44,520 nt of DNA from the UHGV virus genome UHGV-0202726; one strand, written 5' to 3'. Positions 2,444-44,405 of the stretch are shown here, piece by piece. Below the pieces are notes generated by a model. That model was given only the letters and a program-made list of their open reading frames with translations, was not told where the DNA came from and did no database searches. Position numbers and translations under genes: made by a program. The number at the start of each line of letters is the position of its first letter. The stretch's first letter is position 1. This stretch comes from a virus.

Positions 2444-3136
2444 TCATAAGTTTATCACCCCGCATTTGGTACAACGCCGCCCGTTGGGGTAATAATATTC
2501 CCACTCATGTTTGCATTTCTGCGTATAGGCTTTCGGCTCATACTCCGGGTCATCCCACTCACGCGCACCGCATTCGCAGCAAAACAGACTACCGGGCACG
2601 TTGCCCTTGTGGCCTTCGGCGATAAACAATCCTGGAGCGATAAGCCAATTGTGGTCACATTCCTGGGTATCTTCTTTACGGCAACCGGATTTCTCAGTGC
2701 CAAGCGCACCTTTACGGATAAGTTTGTACGCCTCCACGTCACCGGTAGCCAGTCGTTTTACCAGGTCATCAACTTGCGCTTGAAAGCGCAACGCATCGCC
2801 GCGATATGCTGACGATTGCCCTGTCAGGTGCGATATGTGCTCAGATTTCTTAATGTTGTCTTCCCGCAACTCCTTAATCTGCGCCGACGCATCACGTAAC
2901 TGATTCTTAAGTGACTGCACCTCATGCGCCAGGTCTTCGCACTGTTGCTTGTACTGGTTGTGCTCCAGGCCGATGTAGGCATCGATTACGGCATTTTCCT
3001 CGTCGGTATAGTTACCGCGACCAGCAATACTACGGTCGATACTCCACCGTTTAATTTCACCCATTACATCTGCGACCGGTAGCTGCTGCCGTAGTTGGTC
3101 AATCAGGTACTCGAATACTTCGTTTTTGTTACTCAT
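2444..3136 (-). CDS. hypothetical coiled-coil protein with C-terminal Cys-rich zinc-ribbon-like region
   Basis: ATG at 3136 (MSNKNE...) with GGAGGA RBS and 8-nt overlap with upstream gene; C-terminal CCECG...CTKCG cysteine pairs. Confidence 0.5.
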   Translation of the reverse strand: MSNKNEVFEYLIDQLRQQLPVADVMGEIKRWSIDRSIAGRGNYTDEENAVIDAYIGLEHNQYKQQCEDLAHEVQSLKNQLRDASAQIKELREDNIKKSEHISHLTGQSSAYRGDALRFQAQVDDLVKRLATGDVEAYKLIRKGALGTEKSGCRKEDTQECDHNWLIAPGLFIAEGHKGNVPGSLFCCECGAREWDDPEYEPKAYTQKCKHEWEYYYPNGRRCTKCGVINL

Positions 3137-3347
3137 CTTCTGGTTCCTCCCCATTATATTCTTCGAACACAAAGTCATCGTCTGCGGATAGCGCCCATCG
3201 ACCATACCCCGCGTAGTAGACATCAAGTTCAGTGCCGTTGTCGTCTATTACGTAGCAGCGGCTCTCGTCGCCGTCTTCTTTGAGATGGTATAAGTCGTTT
3301 TTAGTCAGCACCCAATAGTCATCGTGGGATTTGCATTCCAGGAACAT
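3129..3347 (-). CDS. hypothetical acidic protein
   Basis: ATG with GAGGAGAGA RBS; first gene downstream of the promoter element at 3379-3408; acidic C-terminus. Confidence 0.5.
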   Translation of the reverse strand: MFLECKSHDDYWVLTKNDLYHLKEDGDESRCYVIDDNGTELDVYYAGYGRWALSADDDFVFEEYNGEEPEDE

Positions 3348-3378
3348 CTTCTGTCTCTCCTCTCGTCTGTGTAAATGA

Positions 3379-3408
3379 ATAGTAGCCTATTCTATTTCAG
3401 CGTGCAAG
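3379..3408 (-). promoter_or_regulatory. promoter, TTGCAC-N18-TACTAT class with palindromic GAATAG/CTATT core
   Basis: -35 TTGCAC (3408..3403), -10 TACTAT (3384..3379) on minus strand, about 35 nt upstream of the ATG at 3347; related to the elements at 5157-5185 and 27631-27659. Confidence 0.5.
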
Positions 3409-3414
3409 TAAATT

Positions 3415-3588
3415 TTATTGGTGTGTTATAGAGTCGATGAACGCCAGTAACGCGCGCTCCGCTTCTGCTTCTCTTTCCTCAAGTGACCAGGTAGCGGACT
3501 CCTCTGTTGCCGTTGCTAAATCGGTTTTTACATCAATCATCGTGTCAATTAACGTGATTAGTCGTTCGGCCTGTTCTTTAGTAATCAT
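3415..3588 (-). CDS. hypothetical small protein (57 aa, below ORF-track cutoff)
   Basis: ATG at 3588 with GGAGA RBS 7 nt upstream; fills the gap between terminator and promoter. Confidence 0.3.
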   Translation of the reverse strand: MITKEQAERLITLIDTMIDVKTDLATATEESATWSLEEREAEAERALLAFIDSITHQ

Positions 3589-4903: not shown

Positions 4904-5122
4904 TTATTTAAAGTAGATAGCGAATTTCTTGTAACCCGCAGGCTCGTTACGAAGCCCTTTACCGTTGGCGAAACGTTGTACGTTAATAAAATCATTTTCA
5001 TCCATTCCGTCGGTGTCGAACGTAAAGAAGTTTCGTTTGTTCCCGATGATTACTCGCTCTGAGATATCGATGCCGTAAACTTCTTTTATTGCGGAAACTA
5101 CGCTTGCGGTCGCTTTGTTCAT
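4904..5122 (-). CDS. hypothetical protein
   Basis: ATG with AAGGAA RBS; first gene of the leftward operon. Confidence 0.5.
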   Translation of the reverse strand: MNKATASVVSAIKEVYGIDISERVIIGNKRNFFTFDTDGMDENDFINVQRFANGKGLRNEPAGYKKFAIYFK

Positions 5123-5156
5123 TTCTAAATTCCTTATGTCTCGTTTCGATAAGTGA

Positions 5157-5185
5157 ATAGTATCCTATTATGTTGGGGTGTGCAA
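5157..5185 (-). promoter_or_regulatory. promoter, TTGCAC-N17-TACTAT class (leftward)
   Basis: -35 TTGCAC (5185..5180), 17-nt spacer, -10 TACTAT (5162..5157); 36-bp element 32/36 identical to the one at 27629-27664. Confidence 0.5.
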
Positions 5186-5560
5186 GAGAATAGTTACGTT
5201 GCCGTTGTGATTCGTTCGTTTCTTAAAAGAGTACGCAACGCAGTGGGTGGGCGTTAGCCCACCCCAGCGGAGTGAAGTACTCTCTACCTTGCTTACGGCA
5301 ACTATAGAAACTTTTAATTATCATATACTTAAGAGATATGCTGCCGATGAGAATAGAGCTTGCCCAGGGCAACCGGAGATACTAAGGAAGGAAAGTTACG
5401 ATAATTCTTATGTTCAGTAATCTGCCGCTTAACACTTCGCTGGCGCTGGTGCGCCGCTGCGTTTCAAGCGGGTATTACAAGGTGAACAGGAATCAAAGTA
5501 ACTAAGATATAGAAGCACCTTAAACGAAGATTTTCATAATGTCAATAGGTGCGATTATGT

Positions 5561-5589
5561 TTGATTTCCCATTATTCGCAATGTATACT
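5561..5589 (+). promoter_or_regulatory. sigma70-like promoter (rightward) for the HTH/replication operon
   Basis: TTGATT, 17-nt spacer, TATACT, about 30 nt upstream of the GAGGG RBS and ATG at 5622. Confidence 0.5.
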
Positions 5590-5621: not shown

Positions 5622-5792
5622 ATGACGCAGAATGAGGTAGCTGAGCGTATTGGGGTTACTCGTCGTACGCTTAATAACTGGTTAAAGAGTGGGAAGTTCC
5701 CTGATTGTTGTACCCGCATTATGGGCCGCCGGCAGCCAGGTACGTTTGACCCGGAGAAAGTGGAAGCGTGGATTAAGGAGAATGTAAAATGA
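5622..5792 (+). CDS. helix-turn-helix DNA-binding protein (AlpA/excisionase-like fold suggested)
   Basis: ATG at 5622 with GAGGG RBS preferred over track TTG at 5589; MTQNEVAERIGVTRRTLNNWLKSGKFP looks like an HTH. Confidence 0.55.
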   Translation: MTQNEVAERIGVTRRTLNNWLKSGKFPDCCTRIMGRRQPGTFDPEKVEAWIKENVK

Positions 5793-8350: not shown

Positions 8351-8374
8351 AAAAAGAAAGGGGCATTAAGCCCC
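8351..8374 (-). terminator. terminator for the XRE regulator transcript
   Basis: Stem GGGGC/GCCCC with ATTAA loop spanning the stop codon, followed on minus strand by TTTCTTTTT. Confidence 0.5.
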
Positions 8375-8581
8375 TTCACCGAACGCCAGCCACTTGGCGT
8401 CTACTTGTAGCACTTCCGCCAGCTTGAACAGCGTCGCCGGTCGGACGTCCTGAGTTACCCCGAGCGCAAGCTGGTTAATCGCGCCCTGGGAAACGCCAGC
8501 CAGGACCGCCAGACGGCGCTGGGAGATGCCGAGTTCTTTACGGCGTTGTTCTACGCGGATACCTAGTTCAGATGGTTGCAT
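8366..8581 (-). CDS. XRE-family helix-turn-helix transcriptional regulator (Cro/CI-like)
   Basis: 71 aa; LGISQRRLAVLAGVSQGAINQLALG is a typical XRE HTH; AAGGAG RBS; monocistronic with own terminator. Confidence 0.75.
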   Translation of the reverse strand: MQPSELGIRVEQRRKELGISQRRLAVLAGVSQGAINQLALGVTQDVRPATLFKLAEVLQVDAKWLAFGEGA

Positions 8582-8604: not shown

Positions 8605-8630
8605 ATATGTGAATAGTACCATATTAATTA
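8605..8630 (-). promoter_or_regulatory. operator-like palindrome and probable -10 region of the XRE regulator gene
   Basis: TGTGAATAGTACCATATTAA; TACTAT on minus strand (8618..8613) about 30 nt upstream of ATG 8581; weak -35, AT-rich upstream. Confidence 0.4.
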
Positions 8631-8645: not shown

Positions 8646-8674
8646 TTGACACGTGAATAGTTCGCTATTATAGT
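8646..8674 (+). promoter_or_regulatory. consensus sigma70 promoter
   Basis: TTGACA, 17-nt spacer containing TGAATAGTT, TATAGT. Confidence 0.6.
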
Positions 8675-9975: not shown

Positions 9976-11213
9976 TTCTAAAAGAACGCGGTGGCAATAA
10001 CGATGTACACGCATTACTATCACCGTCAGGCGCTAAAAAGTGGTTAACCTGCCCGGCTTCTCTGGCCTGTGAAAAAGATATTCCTAACACGTCCGGTAAA
10101 GCCGCGGTATTAGGTACGGCTATGCACACCATAGCTGAGGTACATCTCAACGCCTATATCCGCGGCACTGCGCTACCATTAGAGCGTGAAGTCGGTGCTT
10201 ACGTGCTGGACGAGGGTAAAGGCCAGATTAAGGCGCTAATCAGCCCGATGAAATGCGCGGTACTGATTACGGCTGACATGATTGAGCAGGTGCGCAAGTA
10301 CACAGACTACTGCAAAGCTGTTATCGATGTAGCGACTTACGCCAAACTCGAGATGCGTGTCAATCTTACTGAGGTATTGCATCCAGGCTACGAAGGCGTT
10401 GAGACATTCGGAACCGCCGACCTTGTTGCCGTTCAGGAACTGGCGAACACCGACGAGCACATGCTCATTATTGGCGACCTTAAAACTGGACGGCATCGTG
10501 TTGAAGCGAAAGAAAACAAGCAGCTTATGCTTTACGCTCTCGGTGTTTATCGCCGACTCAAGAGACGTTATAACATCACAGTTGTTCGCCTGGTCATCTT
10601 TCAGCCGTACGCGGGCGGTGCGTCGGAGTGGGACATCTCGGTTGAAGGTCTGGAACTGTTCGCTAAGTTTGCACAGAAACGCGCACTGTTAGCTCTTGAC
10701 GCGTATTACCGAGGCAAGAAGAACCTGAAAGCATCTGACTTCAAGCCGTCAGTAGACGGTTGTCAGTGGTGCCGGTTCTCGGAACAGTGTGCCGCGCGTA
10801 CAAAAACCGTTAACGCGGTGCTGGCGGAAGAACTTGAAGACGACTTTGCGCTGGAACTGACACCAGAGCAACTCGTAGCTGAGTATGAGAAGTTGCCATT
10901 GTTGCGCCAGCACATCGACAAGGTCGAGAAAGCGATGTCCGCCGCGTTGCATTCCGGTAAGAAAGTGCCGGGGTACAAGCTGGTTGAAGGTAAGATGGGC
11001 AATCGTGCGTGGAAGGATGCTGAGGCGGTATACGAGAAATACGGCTACAAGCTGACTAAAGACGTGCTCATGTCACCTACCGAAGCGGTTAAAGTCATAC
11101 CGGAGGAGGAGCTAAAAGACTTCATTACCCGTAAGCCTGGCGCACCATGTGTTGCAACGGCGGACGACAAGCGTCCTGAGTGGAATCAGGTAACAGAGGA
11201 GGATTTGGAATGA
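9972..11213 (+). CDS. PD-(D/E)XK nuclease, Cas4/RecB-like with Cys cluster
   Basis: ATG at 9972 (ATGA overlap, GGAGAG RBS) preferred over track GTG 9957; GDLKTG (D-x-K), QLMLYAL (QxxxY), N-terminal C and C-terminal CQWCRFSEQC consistent with a Cas4-type Fe-S cluster. Confidence 0.75.
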   Translation: MILKERGGNNDVHALLSPSGAKKWLTCPASLACEKDIPNTSGKAAVLGTAMHTIAEVHLNAYIRGTALPLEREVGAYVLDEGKGQIKALISPMKCAVLITADMIEQVRKYTDYCKAVIDVATYAKLEMRVNLTEVLHPGYEGVETFGTADLVAVQELANTDEHMLIIGDLKTGRHRVEAKENKQLMLYALGVYRRLKRRYNITVVRLVIFQPYAGGASEWDISVEGLELFAKFAQKRALLALDAYYRGKKNLKASDFKPSVDGCQWCRFSEQCAARTKTVNAVLAEELEDDFALELTPEQLVAEYEKLPLLRQHIDKVEKAMSAALHSGKKVPGYKLVEGKMGNRAWKDAEAVYEKYGYKLTKDVLMSPTEAVKVIPEEELKDFITRKPGAPCVATADDKRPEWNQVTEEDLE

Positions 11214-11387: not shown

Positions 11388-11416
11388 TTGACACCTGAAT
11401 AGTTAGCTATTATAGT
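11388..11416 (+). promoter_or_regulatory. consensus sigma70 promoter
   Basis: TTGACA, 17-nt spacer containing TGAATAGTT, TATAGT. Confidence 0.6.
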
Positions 11417-11472
11417 TCTAATCACTGGCCGGGCAGCTTCCCGGAGTAAACTGAAAACTGAGGAATCGAGAA

Positions 11473-12099: not shown

Positions 12100-12118
12100 T
12101 ATCTGAATCAATTTAACT

Positions 12119-12141
12119 AAGGCCCTTCATTGGGCCTTTTT
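12119..12141 (+). terminator. rho-independent terminator
   Basis: AAGGCCC-TTCATT-GGGCCTT followed by TTTTT. Confidence 0.65.
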
Positions 12142-12160
12142 ACTAAGGGTCGAAAATAAT

Positions 12161-14615: not shown

Positions 14616-14933
14616 ATGAGTACGCCTGAGGGGCGCATCCAGAAATACGCAAAAGACCGATTCGAGGCCATTGGCGGCCTCGTTCGTAAACTTTCCTACG
14701 AAGGACGTTCCGGCGCTCCCGACCTGCTGGTAATTCTCCCCAACGGCATCGTCTGGTTCGTCGAGGTTAAGAAAGACGAAAACACGAAGCCAGACCCTCA
14801 CCAGTTACGGGAACACGAGCGGATGCGTAAACGTGGCGCAAATGTTTTTGTAGTTGGTTCGATAAAACAGGTTGACACCCTAGTAGCGGACTATTATAGT
14901 AAGTACATACCCCAACAATATAAGGAATTATAA
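14616..14933 (+). CDS. VRR-NUC domain nuclease
   Basis: PDLLVILPNG...VEVKK...Q..E arrangement typical of VRR-NUC PD-(D/E)XK proteins; GAGGGG RBS. Confidence 0.7.
   Translation: MSTPEGRIQKYAKDRFEAIGGLVRKLSYEGRSGAPDLLVILPNGIVWFVEVKKDENTKPDPHQLREHERMRKRGANVFVVGSIKQVDTLVADYYSKYIPQQYKEL
14872..14900 (+). promoter_or_regulatory. consensus sigma70 promoter inside the 3' end of the VRR-NUC gene
   Basis: TTGACA, 17-nt spacer, TATAGT. Confidence 0.55.
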
Positions 14934-17517: not shown

Positions 17518-17651
17518 ACATCATATCCACGATTCCGGCATTGCAAAAACGTATCAAAGAACTCGAAGAAGAGGTTCTACGACTACGACAACAGCGAGAC
17601 GCCGCTAATGCGCAACTGGCGTATGTACTGGAGAAGTTATCAGAAGAGTAG
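17514..17651 (+). CDS. hypothetical small coiled-coil protein (45 aa)
   Basis: ATGA overlap with SNF2 stop; AAGGAG RBS 8 nt upstream. Confidence 0.4.
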   Translation: MNIISTIPALQKRIKELEEEVLRLRQQRDAANAQLAYVLEKLSEE

Positions 17652-17655
17652 AGAA

Positions 17656-17682
17656 AAGGCCCCGTTTGGGGCCTTAGTTTTA
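17656..17682. terminator. bidirectional rho-independent terminator between convergent operons
   Basis: AAGGCCCC-GTTT-GGGGCCTT with T-rich tracts on both sides. Confidence 0.65.
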
Positions 17683-27115: not shown

Positions 27116-27522
27116 GAGAGTTTCTCGCGGCTATCGGTGTGGTGCTTAACTACGGCTTCTGCCAACCCACTGTACTGGTCAAACAGGTTAGCCAGCGCCT
27201 CTTTGCTGAACGGTTCGTCGAATGACCAACCGGTGACGATTTCCACGGCAAGCTGCTTGTTCAGGTCCATCACCCGCCAGCCCTTCTCATCATTATAACG
27301 CGCCCAGTTATTCAGTGCCTCACACTCTTTATCTAATGGCGCAAGTTCTTCCGTAAGGCGTCGAATTGCCGTTGTGTAGGCGCGGCCCGCGCGAACCCCG
27401 ACATCACAATCAGGACCAATGACCTGCAACCATTCTCCGGAGTCTTTACCACTCGGCAGAAGGATAGGCATTTTAGTACCGGCAGCGTGTCGGTCAGCAA
27501 AATAGAAATCAGAAAGTTTCAT
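27106..27522 (-). CDS. tail assembly chaperone (lambda G-like)
   Basis: 138 aa immediately upstream of the tape measure; AAGGA RBS. Confidence 0.55.
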   Translation of the reverse strand: MKLSDFYFADRHAAGTKMPILLPSGKDSGEWLQVIGPDCDVGVRAGRAYTTAIRRLTEELAPLDKECEALNNWARYNDEKGWRVMDLNKQLAVEIVTGWSFDEPFSKEALANLFDQYSGLAEAVVKHHTDSREKLSEK

Positions 27523-27630
27523 TCTTTAGTCCTTTGGTTAAGAGGTTACAGGTTAAGGTTGACGCGCCAGACGGGAACCACCCGCTTTTCGTGTGCGACA
27601 CTAGGCGCAAACTTATTCTAGCACACTACT

Positions 27631-27659
27631 TGCACACCCCGATATAATAGGGTACTATT
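27631..27659 (+). promoter_or_regulatory. promoter, TTGCAC-N17-TACTAT class (rightward) for the plus-strand island
   Basis: TTGCAC, 17-nt spacer, TACTAT; 36-bp element 32/36 identical to 5151-5186 in inverted orientation; followed by GAGGAA RBS and ATG 27687. Confidence 0.5.
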
Positions 27660-27686
27660 CACCTGTAACTTACTGAGGAAATAATT

Positions 27687-28013
27687 ATGCGTAAATTAGT
27701 GTTAGCTCTTGGTTTTATGTCTTTTGCTACTTTTGGGTCTCCGTGTGAACAGGTGTTTAGTGAATCCGTTCTTATGACTTCTGGTGTGCTTGATAGAGCC
27801 GACCCTACTATTGTAAAGGCATTTAAGGACTCTACCGTTCGCGAGTGTGAGGCAGCCGTAGAGGTTGGTAAATCGGGCCTGCCTCCGCAAGCCGTAACAT
27901 ACACGGTAATACGTTCTGTAGAGAAAAACGGAGACGCGGTTTACAGCCTACTGACCGCCACCCGCCTGCAAATGGTAATGACTGGGTGGGCAATAGGCGC
28001 AGAAAGTAAATAG
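27687..28013 (+). CDS. hypothetical secreted protein (N-terminal signal peptide-like)
   Basis: MRKLVLALGFMSFATFG hydrophobic N-terminus; GAGGAA RBS. Confidence 0.5.
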   Translation: MRKLVLALGFMSFATFGSPCEQVFSESVLMTSGVLDRADPTIVKAFKDSTVRECEAAVEVGKSGLPPQAVTYTVIRSVEKNGDAVYSLLTATRLQMVMTGWAIGAESK

Positions 28014-28077: not shown

Positions 28078-29208
28078 ATGGCCAGGAAGAAAATAACCGA
28101 CGAACAGTTGCAGGAAGAATTGAACGCCGGTATGAAGAATATCGACATCGCCCGTAAATACGGCATCTCAGACCGCGTTATTCGCATCCGTAAAGCGAAG
28201 CTGGCTAAGAAAGGCGTAGGCCACGGGCGCGACGTTAGTCACCTTGTGCCAGATGGCTACAAGATTAAAGGAACGTCGTCACTTGTGGACGAGTTCGGCA
28301 ACACTAAGTTGCAATGGGTTAAGACCGACACAGACGCAGAACGTCAGGTCGAGTTGATGAAAGCCGTAATCGAAGGCATGAAGTCAGAGATTACTCCGGT
28401 TGCACCTGTTAAAGCAACCCGAGCCAAACGCGACGATAAACTGCTTAATCTTTACACTGTATCCGATTTTCATCTCGGTATGCTGGCCTGGGCCGACGAG
28501 AGCGGCGACGACTGGGATATGAAGATTGCGGAAGACCTGTTCTCTCGCTGGTTCGACGCGGCGTTTCAGAAAGCACCGGATGCGGGGACTGGGGTTATTA
28601 ACCTGCTGGGCGACTTCGCGCACTTCGATAGTCTGGTTGCCGTTACACCTGCAAGCGGTCACGCCCTTGACGCCGACACCCGTTACCAGAAACTTGTCCG
28701 CTACATGATTCGCATGGTCCGCCGTGTTGTCGATATGGCGCTGGTTAAGCATAAAAATGTTCGCTTGCTTATCGTGCAAGGGAATCACGACGAAAGTGGC
28801 ATGATTTGGTTGGCTGAGATGTTCAGTACGCTGTATGACAATGAGCCGCGTGTGTTCGTCGATACGTCACCGGATGTTTACAAGATGGTGCAACACGGCA
28901 AAACGACGCTGTTCTTTCACCACGGACATAAAGCACGCTTCGACGCTATCGAACCGGTTATGATCGCCAAGTTCCGCAAAGCGTTCGGTGAGAGTGTTTA
29001 CAGCTACGCCCATGTAGGACACCTGCACCATCAGAAGATTGTGGAAAGCCGTAACATGATTGTTGAGCAACACCGCACCTTAGCGGCTAAAGACGCCTAC
29101 GCCTCCCGCGGAGGTTGGATGTCGGGCCGTAGCGCAAATGTAATTACTTATAGCGCCGAATTTGGCGAGGTCGCACGTTTAACTATTTCACCGGAGATGC
29201 TGGGATGA
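28078..29208 (+). CDS. calcineurin-like metallophosphoesterase with N-terminal HTH-like segment
   Basis: DFHLG, GDFAHFD, GNHDE, HHGH, GHLHH motifs in the order expected for metallophosphoesterases; N-terminal NIDIARKYGISDRVIRIRKAKL HTH-like; GAGGAA RBS. Confidence 0.65.
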   Translation: MARKKITDEQLQEELNAGMKNIDIARKYGISDRVIRIRKAKLAKKGVGHGRDVSHLVPDGYKIKGTSSLVDEFGNTKLQWVKTDTDAERQVELMKAVIEGMKSEITPVAPVKATRAKRDDKLLNLYTVSDFHLGMLAWADESGDDWDMKIAEDLFSRWFDAAFQKAPDAGTGVINLLGDFAHFDSLVAVTPASGHALDADTRYQKLVRYMIRMVRRVVDMALVKHKNVRLLIVQGNHDESGMIWLAEMFSTLYDNEPRVFVDTSPDVYKMVQHGKTTLFFHHGHKARFDAIEPVMIAKFRKAFGESVYSYAHVGHLHHQKIVESRNMIVEQHRTLAAKDAYASRGGWMSGRSANVITYSAEFGEVARLTISPEMLG

Positions 29209-29690
29209 AAGATATTGTGATTTTCGATTTAGACGGGACATTGGCGGATGGTACTCATCGTTTACACCTGCTGCCGAAAGATAACTACGGCGAAACCTGG
29301 GCGTGGAAACCATTTAACATGGCGTGCAAAGATGATGAACCAATTATAGATAACATCGAACTGTGTAACGCCCTTAATCGCTGCTACGCCGTTGTTATTT
29401 TAACGGGCCGCAGTGATGACGCGGAAAAAGAAACAAGAATGTGGTTGCAGCGCCACCGCGTCGAATTTTACCAGTTAATCATGCGCAGCAAACACGACAA
29501 CAGAAAAGACATCGTAATTAAGGAAGAGGTGCTACGTGCTATCGGGCTGGAAAGAATCTTGTGCGCATTCGACGACTCTCCCGCGGTAATAAAGCATTTC
29601 CGCGAACTCGGCATAACCACTCACGCGGTTACCGAATATGACTGTAACGGGAACTCTTCACACTTAAAGCCACATGGGAGCGATAAATAA
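29205..29690 (+). CDS. HAD-superfamily phosphatase, polynucleotide 3'-phosphatase-like
   Basis: VIFDLDGTLA (DxDGT), TGR, KD..IKEE, FDDS motifs; resemblance to the T4 Pnkp phosphatase domain as recalled from memory; ATGA overlap with upstream gene. Confidence 0.6.
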   Translation: MKDIVIFDLDGTLADGTHRLHLLPKDNYGETWAWKPFNMACKDDEPIIDNIELCNALNRCYAVVILTGRSDDAEKETRMWLQRHRVEFYQLIMRSKHDNRKDIVIKEEVLRAIGLERILCAFDDSPAVIKHFRELGITTHAVTEYDCNGNSSHLKPHGSDK

Positions 29691-30259
29691 TGGCTAAGGT
29701 AATTATTCTTAATGGTCCTGCGGGTTGCGGGAAAGACACGCTTGCTATGGCACTGGTAGAAATGGGCTTTGCGAAAGGAACTACCAGTTTCAAGAATCCA
29801 ATGTTCAATATTGCTTTGGCGGCGTTAGGTCCGGATGCTTACCATGAGTTTCTCGACGGCTACGACGACCGGGCACGGAAAGAAAAGCCAGAATGTTTCC
29901 TTAATGGGTTGTCGCGACGTCAGTTCATGATTGCTATCTCGGAGCAATTCATTAAGCCTGTACTTGGCAATGATTATTTCGGTAAGTATCTTGCTGAAAA
30001 CTTGCCAGACGGCAACGAAGTTTTTGTAGTGTCTGATGGCGGATTCGCCAGTGAAGTGACTCCTATCGTCGCCGCGGGTCATGACGTGAGAATCGTTCGC
30101 CTTCATCGTGACGGCTATACGTTTGAGGATGACAGCCGTGGTTATCTGTACGATATTGATGGGGTAGTGCACCATGACGTCGCCGTCGTTCCGGGCGAGA
30201 TTACATTAACAGCGGCTGCGATTGCTAATAGAATCCTGGGGATTTACCCAAATGCGTGA
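29690..30259 (+). CDS. P-loop kinase, dNMP kinase-like
   Basis: GPAGCGKDT Walker A resembling the T4 gp1 dNMP kinase GKDT P-loop (from memory); start overlaps upstream stop. Confidence 0.6.
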   Translation: MAKVIILNGPAGCGKDTLAMALVEMGFAKGTTSFKNPMFNIALAALGPDAYHEFLDGYDDRARKEKPECFLNGLSRRQFMIAISEQFIKPVLGNDYFGKYLAENLPDGNEVFVVSDGGFASEVTPIVAAGHDVRIVRLHRDGYTFEDDSRGYLYDIDGVVHHDVAVVPGEITLTAAAIANRILGIYPNA

Positions 30260-30428
30260 AAACATTATGAAAACAATATATGTAATCCGCGTATTCGACG
30301 AAGAATGGGACGAGTGGGTCGATATTTACGCCGTTGGTAGCAAGGAGGAGGCCTCAAAAGAAATGACAGAACGAAGTGATCGAGGCCAGTTAACTAACTT
30401 CTATGAAATGCCATTCAAAAGTGAGTAA
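30252..30428 (+). CDS. hypothetical small protein
   Basis: ATG at 30252 overlapping kinase stop (alternative ATG at 30267); acidic. Confidence 0.35.
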   Translation: MRENIMKTIYVIRVFDEEWDEWVDIYAVGSKEEASKEMTERSDRGQLTNFYEMPFKSE

Positions 30429-30431
30429 GAA

Positions 30432-30458
30432 AAGGCCCCTTTCGGGGCCTTAGTTTTA
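30432..30458. terminator. bidirectional rho-independent terminator
   Basis: AAGGCCCC-TTTC-GGGGCCTT followed by AGTTTTA; between convergent island and major tail gene. Confidence 0.65.
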
Positions 30459-36872: not shown

Positions 36873-37123
36873 GTTTCTCCTTTCTCGATAAGTAAAGCCC
36901 CGCCATAAAGCGGGGCGCTAGTCCTTATCATTTAAACATAGAAACGGCGTAATCTCAGTAAACCCGTTCCTTTTTACACAAGCAATAGAGTATGGCCCTT
37001 CCGAACGCGTCAGCGTAACTACACTCAGGACTTACGTCCCGCTCCGTTACCTGCCCGCGCCGCGGTCGCTTGTTCATACTTCACAAGCTCAGGTGGAGCT
37101 TATCACATTTTTAGTGAAAAGTC

Positions 37124-37139
37124 AACTATTCGAATAGTT
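37124..37139. repeat. perfect 16-bp palindrome AACTATTCGAATAGTT
   Basis: Read directly; lies in the 340-bp non-coding region upstream of the Rz gene; shares the GAATAG/CTATT core with the promoter-associated motif. Confidence 0.9.
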
Positions 37140-37189
37140 TATTCCAACATTTACAATTAGGAGGAATAACTGGAATAATAACAGGCGCT

Positions 37190-37209
37190 AAAAAGCCCCT
37201 TTCGGGGCC
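37190..37209 (-). terminator. rho-independent terminator downstream of the Ig-like gene
   Basis: AGCCCC-TTTC-GGGGCT hairpin followed on minus strand by TTTT. Confidence 0.5.
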
Positions 37210-37214
37210 TTAGT

Positions 37215-37676
37215 TTATTCAGGCTTAGTGACCTTCGCCGCTTTACTGACGGCCTCTACACCATCGGCATCGGTAACTTTAACGAAGTATTCGCCTGCCG
37301 CGTTAACCGTAAGAGACAAAGCCTCTTCGGGTGCGTTTACAACTTCCTTACCATCTTTGTACCAGGTCAGAGCATACGGCGCTTTACCAGCCTTAACTTC
37401 GACCGTGATAGTTGCGCTGCCGTCTGCCAGTTCTGTGTCTTTCGGTTGCACCGAGAAATACACGTCGCCAGCATCAGCCAGATACGGAATTTCATAAAGC
37501 ATACCCGCCGCCGGCAGCGCAATACCGGTTTTATCTGCAAACGGCATGTCGTCTACTGGTGTACCAAGTACACTTTCATCTTCGATAAATACCACGTTCT
37601 CACCAGAACCAGACACTCGGGCGTACTGAACTACGCGACGCGACGGTACATCAGTTACTTTGAAAAAGCCCATCAT
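37215..37676 (-). CDS. Ig-like domain protein
   Basis: 153 aa; C-terminal ITVEVKAGKAPYALTWYKDGKEV...GEYFVKVTD pattern of Ig-like domains. Confidence 0.5.
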   Translation of the reverse strand: MMGFFKVTDVPSRRVVQYARVSGSGENVVFIEDESVLGTPVDDMPFADKTGIALPAAGMLYEIPYLADAGDVYFSVQPKDTELADGSATITVEVKAGKAPYALTWYKDGKEVVNAPEEALSLTVNAAGEYFVKVTDADGVEAVSKAAKVTKPE

Positions 37677-38752
37677 TAATCCCCTTTCAGATAATCAGCA
37701 ACACGTTTATCGAGTTCCGCCATCTGCTTAAGCGTGAGCGGATTCCCGAAACCATCTACAGATATTACGCGAAACTCTTCCGGCGATATACCGCTGTTGC
37801 GGAAAATCTTACCTCGCACCGGGCCGAGCGCCTGGTCCTGAAACCATGCGGGTTGTTGTTTCAGGAACTCGTAGTAAGTGGTGTCTGCGCTTACCTGAGT
37901 ACCGCCATCCGCACCCTTAGCCGCGCGTTTTGCACCTTTATCAAGGAAGTCGAACTCGGAACTGATTACCGGAGCCGTGCACGACCGGCAGTTCGGATGG
38001 GCGGGTGGCATCGGCCCTTTACCGATTTCCCACGTCATCCCGTCTCTGGCCCTGCAAATCGTACTGGTACGGCTGTCCAGCGTCGACACCCACTCGTACT
38101 TCTCGATGATGTCGTCGTTCTGGCGGTACGTCTCGTTACGTGCTTCGTTGGATACGTGAGACAGAGCGGTGCGGATTACCGTCGCAGCGTTTCGTTCTGA
38201 AATGTCCGCCAGTCCACCAGCGCCTACGACATTTTTAACAATCTGCCGTGTGGTTTGGCCTTGTACGAAACCCATCTTAACGCCAGTTACCAGGCGCGCG
38301 ACCTCCGTTTCACCCCAGCCAGACATCAGCTTCGTGAAATCAACAGGCTTGTCACTTAACGATAATGGCTGAAACTCGGCAGCGGCCCACACCTGTTCTG
38401 CGGTAGGCGTAACAAATTCCGCGTTAACGTTAGCCGTCAGCGTCTTTACGTTCCACTCAGCCTCATATGCCACCAGTTCCTTAAGGTCTTCTGTCAGTTT
38501 TGTTTGCCAGTCACCGGTAAGTCCTGCCAGTGCTTCTTCGAGGTCGCGTAACAGTTTATTCAGTCGCGCAGTGCTGCGACCGTCGTCACCGAATAGCAGA
38601 ACCTGCCGTTTGATTTCGTCTCGCATCTCCTGAATGAATGGTGTGAGGTCTTTCACTTCACCGGAAGCGGCTCGTTGTAGCCATATCTGGTGGCTTATTA
38701 GGGATGTAAGTAAGCTCATAGATAAACCCTGTGGTGCTAAAGTTAATAGCAT
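37676..38752 (-). CDS. head morphogenesis protein (Mu F / SPP1 gp7-like)
   Basis: 358 aa directly downstream of portal; PPAHPNCRSCTAP motif typical of the Mu F-like minor head protein family; alternative ATG at 38719. Confidence 0.7.
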   Translation of the reverse strand: MLLTLAPQGLSMSLLTSLISHQIWLQRAASGEVKDLTPFIQEMRDEIKRQVLLFGDDGRSTARLNKLLRDLEEALAGLTGDWQTKLTEDLKELVAYEAEWNVKTLTANVNAEFVTPTAEQVWAAAEFQPLSLSDKPVDFTKLMSGWGETEVARLVTGVKMGFVQGQTTRQIVKNVVGAGGLADISERNAATVIRTALSHVSNEARNETYRQNDDIIEKYEWVSTLDSRTSTICRARDGMTWEIGKGPMPPAHPNCRSCTAPVISSEFDFLDKGAKRAAKGADGGTQVSADTTYYEFLKQQPAWFQDQALGPVRGKIFRNSGISPEEFRVISVDGFGNPLTLKQMAELDKRVADYLKGD

Positions 38753-44321: not shown

Positions 44322-44405
44322 CTTCTCTACTCCGTTCTCGTTGTCGATGGAGTAGATATAATATGGTCGTAGGTAATAGTCAACTAGTCATTACAGAAAA
44401 TAGAT

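Follow-up and report, generated by a model that had tools for sequence, protein, structure and literature searches.

The operators bound by Cro and repressor in phage 434 (OR1-3 and OL1-3) are 14-bp dyads, ACAAG-N4-CTTGT, in which 5-bp half-sites enclose a variable 4-bp centre, and they lie inside sigma70 promoters. The same layout recurs in the DNA analysed here, a stretch of 44,520 nucleotides (hereafter the window) that constitutes the complete or nearly complete genome of a Kagunavirus (Guernseyvirinae), an E. coli siphophage. The likeness extends to the regulator, in that a 71-aa HTH_3 protein whose best relative in the PDB is 434 Cro is encoded beside two of the sites, in a divergent promoter region. 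Several differences separate the two systems: the half-site is ACAAG in phage 434 and AATAG here; alignment shows that the residues of the recognition helix differ; and where phage 434 has clustered tripartite operators, the window has single sites scattered over seven to nine promoters. Moreover, no CI repressor or lysogeny genes were noted here, and the relatives of this phage are described as lytic.

Two further classes of elements invite comparison. Symmetric bidirectional promoters of bacteria share a -10 element and have start sites spaced by 18 bp; as in these promoters, a palindromic AT-rich core can be found here between divergent genes, and one site of the Salmonella Jerseyvirus PVP-SE2, at 27.3 kb, is symmetric. 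However, the -10-like hexamers here are about 7 bp apart, which would place the starts about 30 bp apart, and most copies are found in one-directional contexts. The second class comprises the moron-type or cassette promoters found at the mosaic junctions in tailed-phage genomes, which resemble the present elements in combining a conserved promoter with variable cargo and in having homology breakpoints no more than about 20 nt from the predicted start. In the window, by contrast, it is the promoter that is kept and the gene that is swapped, and the same type of promoter would also drive core replication genes.

The motif itself has already been published. In the Kagunavirus fBC-Eco01, seven PHIRE 'phage promoters' with the consensus tgAATAGTa-ccTATTat-T were credited to a phage RNA polymerase (PMC9825357), and seven PHIRE promoters were likewise listed for vB_EcoS-Golestan (PMC7203180). 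Motif and copy number are the same as in the window, but these papers give the consensus and the phage-polymerase attribution alone, with no mention of the dyad, of its different registers or of a link to a Cro-like protein, and we found nothing in the published Guernseyvirinae literature searched that ties the motif to a dyad operator or to a Cro-like protein. The PVP-SE2 record carries phiSITE-predicted promoters at collinear sites, and an RNA-seq study of K1B4 offers coarse gene-level timing, in which an HTH gene is among four early genes.

A duplicated, predicted promoter and its 14-bp core

The 36 nt at 5151-5186 (AAGTGAATAGTATCCTATTATGTTGGGGTGTGCAAG) are identical to the reverse complement of 27629-27664 at 32 of 36 positions, by direct reading and by recomputation, and about 2e-6 inverted pairs of this quality would be expected by chance in 44.5 kb. 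An independent repeat search returned 5153-5186/27629-27662 (34 nt, 91%) as the top inverted repeat of the window, which bears out the duplication reported in an earlier note on this DNA. What that note took for a shorter relative, at 3373-3410, is in fact a full-length third copy, since 3373-3408 aligns over all 36 nt (28/36 to 5151-5186 and 27/36 to the 27629 copy). The note had also described TTGCAC-N17/18-TACTAT followed by a ribosome-binding site (RBS) and an ATG within about 30 nt. Its outline stands, with the amendment that the spacer towards the adjoining gene is 17 nt in each copy and an 18-nt spacer is never seen; the purine-rich RBS and the ATG (5122 on the minus strand, 27687 on the plus strand and 3347 on the minus strand) follow 28-34 nt past the -10 hexamer.

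Judging from this anatomy and from comparison with relatives, these elements are predicted sigma70-type promoters, and the note was right to read them as promoters. The hexamers fit the forms TTGNNN and TANNNT at a spacing within 17±1 nt, are oriented towards an RBS-bearing gene and are conserved in relatives; the hexamers, the 17-nt spacer and the placement just upstream of RBS and ATG hold in dozens of related phages. The window is about 90% identical to UTEC10, K1ind2/3 and phiWAO78-1, and is collinear with PVP-SE2 at about 74%.

Two points go beyond the earlier note: the core common to the three copies is a 14-bp palindrome, AATAG-N4-CTATT, and at least four more promoters (at 8612, 8656, 11398 and 14882) bear it. 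Allowing at most one mismatch, AATAGNNNNCTATT has 10 matches in the window against 1.17 expected, a number reached in 0 of 100 shuffles. Among all dyads of the form 5+N+5, AATAG-N4-CTATT is the most frequent in the window, in K1ind2 and in PVP-SE2, the last with 10 matches (1.16 expected) at positions collinear with those of the window. In other phages the motif is looser: phiEap-2 has the form AATA-N6-TATT (8 matches against 0.60 expected), and Cornellvirus, at the same promoter positions, has a degenerate ATTAG-N4-GTATT that is not truly palindromic, with no enrichment of AATA-N6-TATT (2 against 0.62 expected). Because a repeat search also united 5146, 8602, 8646, 11388 and 14872 in one direct-repeat family (D1), the 5151/27629 pair is best seen as a subset of a family of seven to nine members.

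Some candidates were dropped. A one-mismatch dyad at 38745 spans the start codon of a head-morphogenesis gene and lacks the flanks, and 30081-30110, which had been grouped into D1, shows just 67% identity and is devoid of a dyad. In Cornellvirus and phiEap-2, the leading dyad, GAATAA-N-TTATTC, was rejected as a variant operator, being a separate motif of the late region that is built of GGAATAA units. A scan of IMG/VR for TGAATAGNNNNCTATTAT returned 119 loci, about 34 of which matched the window by blastn, and these served only as extra Kagunavirus fragments.

The promoters fall into classes according to where the dyad sits (Table 1). In class A, TTGACA-N4-dyad-ATAGT (i.e., TTGACA-N17-TATAGT), the dyad occupies the spacer, from about -25 to -12. 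In class B, TTGCAC-N10-dyad, TACTAT is formed by dyad positions 8-13, such that the dyad covers the -10 element, from about -19 to -6. In class C, represented by two weaker copies at 37117 and 44375, the -35 hexamer TTGACT is contained in the dyad. At all nine sites, the dyad falls between about -40 and -6. The three class A sites are exactly those that score best as sigma70 promoters (11/12 to consensus) over the first 20 kb, and the seven core sites are all intergenic and all face genes. The direction of class B is fixed by the 3378 copy, which fills a 67-bp gap between two genes of the minus strand (3415-3588 and 3129-3347).

Table 1. Predicted dyad-bearing promoters of the window and the genes of two candidate binding proteins
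Feature	Position	Strand	Details
Class B promoter	5153-5185	-	-35 TTGCAC 5185-5180, 17-nt spacer, -10 TACTAT 5162-5157; dyad AATAGTATCCTATT 5156-5169
Class B promoter, inverted copy	27630-27662	+	-35 TTGCAC 27630-27635, -10 TACTAT 27653-27658; dyad AATAGGGTACTATT 27646-27659
Class B promoter, third copy	3375-3407	-	-35 TTGCAC 3407-3402, -10 TACTAT 3384-3379; dyad 3378-3391
Probable class B member	8609-8625	-	Dyad AATAGTACCATATT 8612-8625 (one mismatch), TACTAT 8618-8613, weak -35; ahead of Cro-like gene
Class A promoter	8646-8674	+	TTGACA-N17-TATAGT, 11/12 to consensus; dyad 8656-8669; divergent from Cro-like gene
Class A promoter	11388-11416	+	TTGACA-N17-TATAGT; dyad 11398-11411; upstream of DUF2815/SSB-like gene and DNA polymerase
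Class A promoter	14872-14900	+	TTGACA-N17-TATAGT; dyad AGTAGCGGACTATT 14882-14895 (one mismatch); upstream of SNF2-helicase block
Possible class C promoter, weaker	44355-44388	-	Dyad ACTAGTTGACTATT holds -35 TTGACT, then N17 and TATATC; PVP-SE2 orthologue annotated as predicted promoter
Possible class C promoter, weak	37097-37130	-	Dyad AATAGTTGACTTTT over TTGACT, poor -10 TAAGCT; beside GGAATAA repeats of the late region
Gene, 71-aa HTH_3 protein, 434-Cro homologue	8366-8581	-	Candidate dyad binder
Gene, 56-aa HTH_17 winged-helix protein	5622-5792	+	Alternative candidate binder

Conservation was assessed over 129 unique site sequences from 40 Guernseyvirinae loci, a comparison in which many alignment columns are conserved regardless, since most of the genomes are 85-92% identical. 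In class B, TACTAT is invariant in every copy and the central dyad positions 6-7 vary. Class A retains TTGACA, the half-sites and TATAGT apart from occasional substitutions, whereas the 4-5 nt between the -35 element and the dyad, and the 4-nt centre, vary at most of their positions; the half-sites vary least, at none of ten positions in the 8656 group and at one or two of ten in the other two groups. The right half-site may owe part of its conservation to sigma70, because it overlaps or abuts the -10 element in classes A and B.

Flanks, cargo genes and neighbouring non-coding sequence

The earlier note proposed that conservation of the GGGGTGTG flank points to recognition by something more than sigma70. 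There is indeed conservation beyond the hexamers, but its informative part is the dyad and not this flank. A TTGCACACCCC run is common to the 5156- and 27646-type copies of Kagunaviruses; the GGGGTGTG flank is not found in the 3378 type (TTGCACGCTGAAA), in the extra class B copies that other Kagunaviruses have (TTGCAGACACC) or in the Jerseyvirus orthologues (TTGCAGAACCT, TTGCATAACCG), and it is therefore a lineage-specific likeness instead of a deeply conserved recognition element. The 5153-5185 promoter as such is conserved in Kagunaviruses and in some Salmonella phages.

In most relatives, the match to the window does not begin before 5137 and does not extend past 27662. At one promoter the homology with K1ind2 stops at 27662, immediately behind CTATTCAC; at the other it stops at 5137, some 20 nt into the leader; and the genes downstream differ. 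Since homology breaks just downstream of each, both promoters border variable gene cassettes, and this lends circumstantial support to the suggestion of a recombination hotspot that had been made for the element, with no sign of a dedicated recombination site. The 5153-5185 promoter is predicted to drive the gene at 4904-5122 and a leftward run of small genes, and its inverted copy is predicted to drive 27687-28013 and the plus-strand island with a metallophosphatase (28078-29208) and a PNK-phosphatase (29205-29690). Directly behind the former promoter, on the minus strand, the 72-aa gene at 4904-5122 is an extra one, inserted ahead of a conserved gene (MFKHGQLV) and absent from K1ind2 and PVP-SE2; other Kagunaviruses have further class B copies before unrelated small genes near the head-spanin region. 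This pattern of junctions fits a swap of cargo genes behind a conserved promoter, and the extra identity of the two copies (TTGCACACCCC...ACTATTCAC, 32/36), which is confined to the Kagunavirus lineage, may reflect common descent or recombination of a class B promoter cassette beside variable cargo. The product of 4904-5122 matches PHROG 7673 (E 9.5e-27), annotated as 'internal head protein', which would be unexpected of a gene in an early cassette position.

Several non-coding features lie close to these promoters. Between the 5156 promoter and that of the HTH_17 gene there are about 370 bp of non-coding DNA (5190-5560), with a strong GC hairpin, GGGTGGGC-GTTA-GCCCACCC, at 5247-5266; the adjacent 5187-5211 is highly conserved, even in some Salmonella phages, and an extra GAATAG half-site occurs at 5188. 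A scan of the window against Rfam gave no match; 5190-5560 might harbour a replication origin or a small RNA. For the HTH_17 gene itself, the list of open reading frames gives a TTG start at 5589, and the Jerseyvirus orthologue and the RBS indicate ATG 5622 (56 aa); with the TTG start, the predicted promoter at 5561-5589 would overlap the start codon. Directly after the class A promoter of the DUF2815/SSB-like gene, the leader contains a hairpin, CCGGG-CAGCTT-CCCGG (11423-11450), that is conserved in four genera and shows a compensatory change (CCTGG...CCAGG) in phage Shemara. The 5' leader may thus be structured, with autoregulation or stability as conceivable roles.

Near-identical terminator hairpins, AAAGGCCCC-TTYG-GGGGCCTTAGTTT, mark module boundaries at 17639-17680, 30415-30456 and 37175-37216, with an inverted copy at 12115-12145, and some of them read as terminators on both strands. 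A second, unrelated motif is built of GGAATAA/TTATTCC units, which often take the form GGAATAACTGGAATAA or that of the palindrome GAATAA-N-TTATTC, and recurs in the late/structural region of all Guernseyvirinae examined (37131-37185 in the window; 25438, 26069 and 26596 in locus L003; 11501, 11874, 12637 and 12670 in locus L004); these units may be late-promoter or activator sites.

The dyad as a putative operator

Relative to the hexamers, the dyad adopts four registers, being 4, 7 or 10 nt after the -35 element or over it; the 7-nt register is found in PVP-SE2, at its counterpart of the 27646 site. PVP-SE2 also has an asymmetric 14-mer at 8436 (AATAGAGTACGATT) that recurs at 10846 as its exact reverse complement, with both promoters facing the same direction. 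That neither the register nor the orientation of the dyad relative to the hexamers is fixed argues that it is separate from the promoter elements proper, and it is likely that it serves as a protein-binding site. Sigma70 is not known to contact the left half-site, AATAG, which in class A lies at -25 to -21.

The foremost candidate for the binding protein is the 71-aa HTH_3 protein encoded at 8366-8581. It matches Pfam HTH_3 at 1e-12, and its best solved relative is 434 Cro, a protein also of 71 aa, which it matches nearly end to end (E 4.9e-7), followed by the 434 repressor. The gene is present in all 503 Guernseyvirinae-type records found, and every dyad-bearing lineage has it, which does not hold for the other HTH gene. 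It is situated in a divergent region with two dyads, those of 8612 and 8656, whose centres are 44 bp apart. Several features expected of operators of the 434/lambda Cro type are found together: a dyad of about 14 bp, near-invariant half-sites, a variable centre, overlap with promoters and an adjacent gene of the Cro family. The recognition helix reads SQGAINQLA in Kagunavirus and SQSLITHLA in Jerseyvirus, yet the dyad is the same; in Cornellvirus and phiEap-2, both the helix and the dyad differ. A lambdoid Klebsiella phage, RCIP0098, encodes a 45%-identical homologue annotated as cro, but it gives no direct support because its immunity region has ACAAG-type sites and not AATAG.

Under the model that we consider the best explanation, a phage without an RNA polymerase of its own would start its non-structural transcription units from at least seven host sigma70-type promoters, all seven of which bear a 14-bp inverted repeat within the region that RNA polymerase must occupy. 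This repeat would be the operator of the 434-Cro-like protein, a dimer of which would block RNA polymerase, so that the promoters, that of the Cro-like gene included, would be turned down as infection proceeds. We give this model about an even chance of being correct, and hold it no higher, because the HTH_17 protein is 86% identical between genera and the recognition helices of the Cro-like proteins differ.

A possible alternative is that these are plain sigma70 promoters without a dedicated factor, which resemble one another because a single cassette spread by duplication or recombination and because strong promoters change slowly. This would account for the 93% identity of class A copies to one another over 30 nt, for class B copies that precede different cargo genes in other Kagunaviruses and for homology breakpoints that adjoin promoters. 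Nevertheless, we regard it as unlikely: from genus to genus the half-sites are retained, whereas changes affect the dyad centre, the stretch from the -35 element to the dyad and even the register; the same asymmetric 14-mer is used in both orientations in PVP-SE2, and the left half-site lies where sigma70 is not known to make contact. The published attribution to a phage-encoded RNA polymerase, proposed by the fBC-Eco01 authors for their seven PHIRE copies, is contradicted by gene content and is almost certainly wrong. None of the window ORFs scanned, and no gene annotated in the relatives, encodes an RNA polymerase; by scan or by the annotation of relatives, the long ORFs are those for helicase-primase, a DUF2800 nuclease, DNA polymerase A, an SNF2 helicase and proteins of the tail, of the head and of packaging. 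The elements themselves have near-consensus sigma70 hexamers.

It is also conceivable, but quite doubtful, that the dyad is bound by a protein other than the Cro-like one, either the HTH_17 protein, as a repressor, an activator or a promoter-loaded antiterminator, or a host regulator. The HTH_17 protein, which PHROGs groups with excisionase-like regulators, is the weaker of the two phage candidates and is only weakly like monomeric winged-helix proteins. Its 86% identity is between Kagunavirus and Jerseyvirus, which both have the gene and share the same exact dyad, a conservation that would suit it as the binder about as well as the Cro-like protein, and Cornellvirus and phiEap-2, whose dyads are altered or degenerate, lack the gene; its structural model resembles MerR-like winged-helix DNA binders (RacA, BldC, Xis), and intrinsic terminators are numerous inside operons. 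However, the fold matches are not significant (best E 0.06) and there is no sequence match in the PDB, its own promoter at 5561-5589 lacks the dyad, and phiEap-2, which lacks the gene, has enriched dyads nonetheless. Direct repeats are the usual targets of small winged-helix proteins of this kind. A spacer-binding activator of the MerR type, with a 19-20-nt spacer and a dimerisation helix, was rejected, as the spacers here are the optimal 17 nt, unlike those of MerR-type promoters, and the HTH_17 protein has 56 aa and no coiled coil. Among host regulators, the ArgR, OxyR and CRP boxes misfit the spacing; these three motifs, the marbox and those of sigma54, sigma32 and sigma28 all failed to fit on inspection.

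Still less probable, in our estimate, is that the palindrome at the divergent regions of 5156 and 27646 is the shared core of a bidirectional promoter, with -10-like hexamers on both strands. Both sites do lie between divergent genes, and D1 aligns 5146-5175 with class A in the opposite direction. The PVP-SE2 site at 27.3 kb (27267; 27250-27300) is nearly perfectly symmetric, with TTGCAT-N17-TATTAT on the plus strand and TTGACG-N17-TATTAA on the minus strand around one dyad, and the predicted promoter in the PVP-SE2 record is there on the minus strand. In addition, 27583-27628, a non-coding, leader-like segment upstream of the tail-assembly-chaperone gene that includes a hairpin (27592-27609), is conserved into Jerseyvirus, which hints at a functional minus-strand leader and hence at a leftward promoter in the same element. 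Against this, the window has only poor hexamers on the opposite strand (GTTACA/TATATC and TCGATA/TATGTT), five dyad promoters are inside one-directional blocks in which an antisense promoter would have no target, and the HTH_17/helicase block has a promoter of its own.

Implications for the Guernseyvirinae

Returning to the Cro-operator model, the feature is best described as a set of sigma70 promoters with an embedded, putative Cro-type operator, tidy but ordinary, and belonging to a motif family that is already published. Phages of the genera Kagunavirus and Jerseyvirus are commonly isolated with phage therapy in view and have been proposed as small chassis for synthetic biology. Although the gain is incremental, the promoter set, the candidate protein-operator pair and the map of cargo genes would correct annotations of 'phage RNAP promoters', indicate safe places for gene insertion and supply a compact, orthogonal repressor-operator system related to that of 434 Cro.

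A more far-reaching scheme, and to our minds a rather improbable one, is that in this strictly lytic family without CI a single regulator, Cro alone (or a promoter-loaded HTH_17 protein), acts through one dyad at every non-structural promoter, in four registers, and at the two divergent sites switches direction between cargo genes and tail or replication genes. If true, the remnant of an immunity module would here have become a timing switch for the whole genome.
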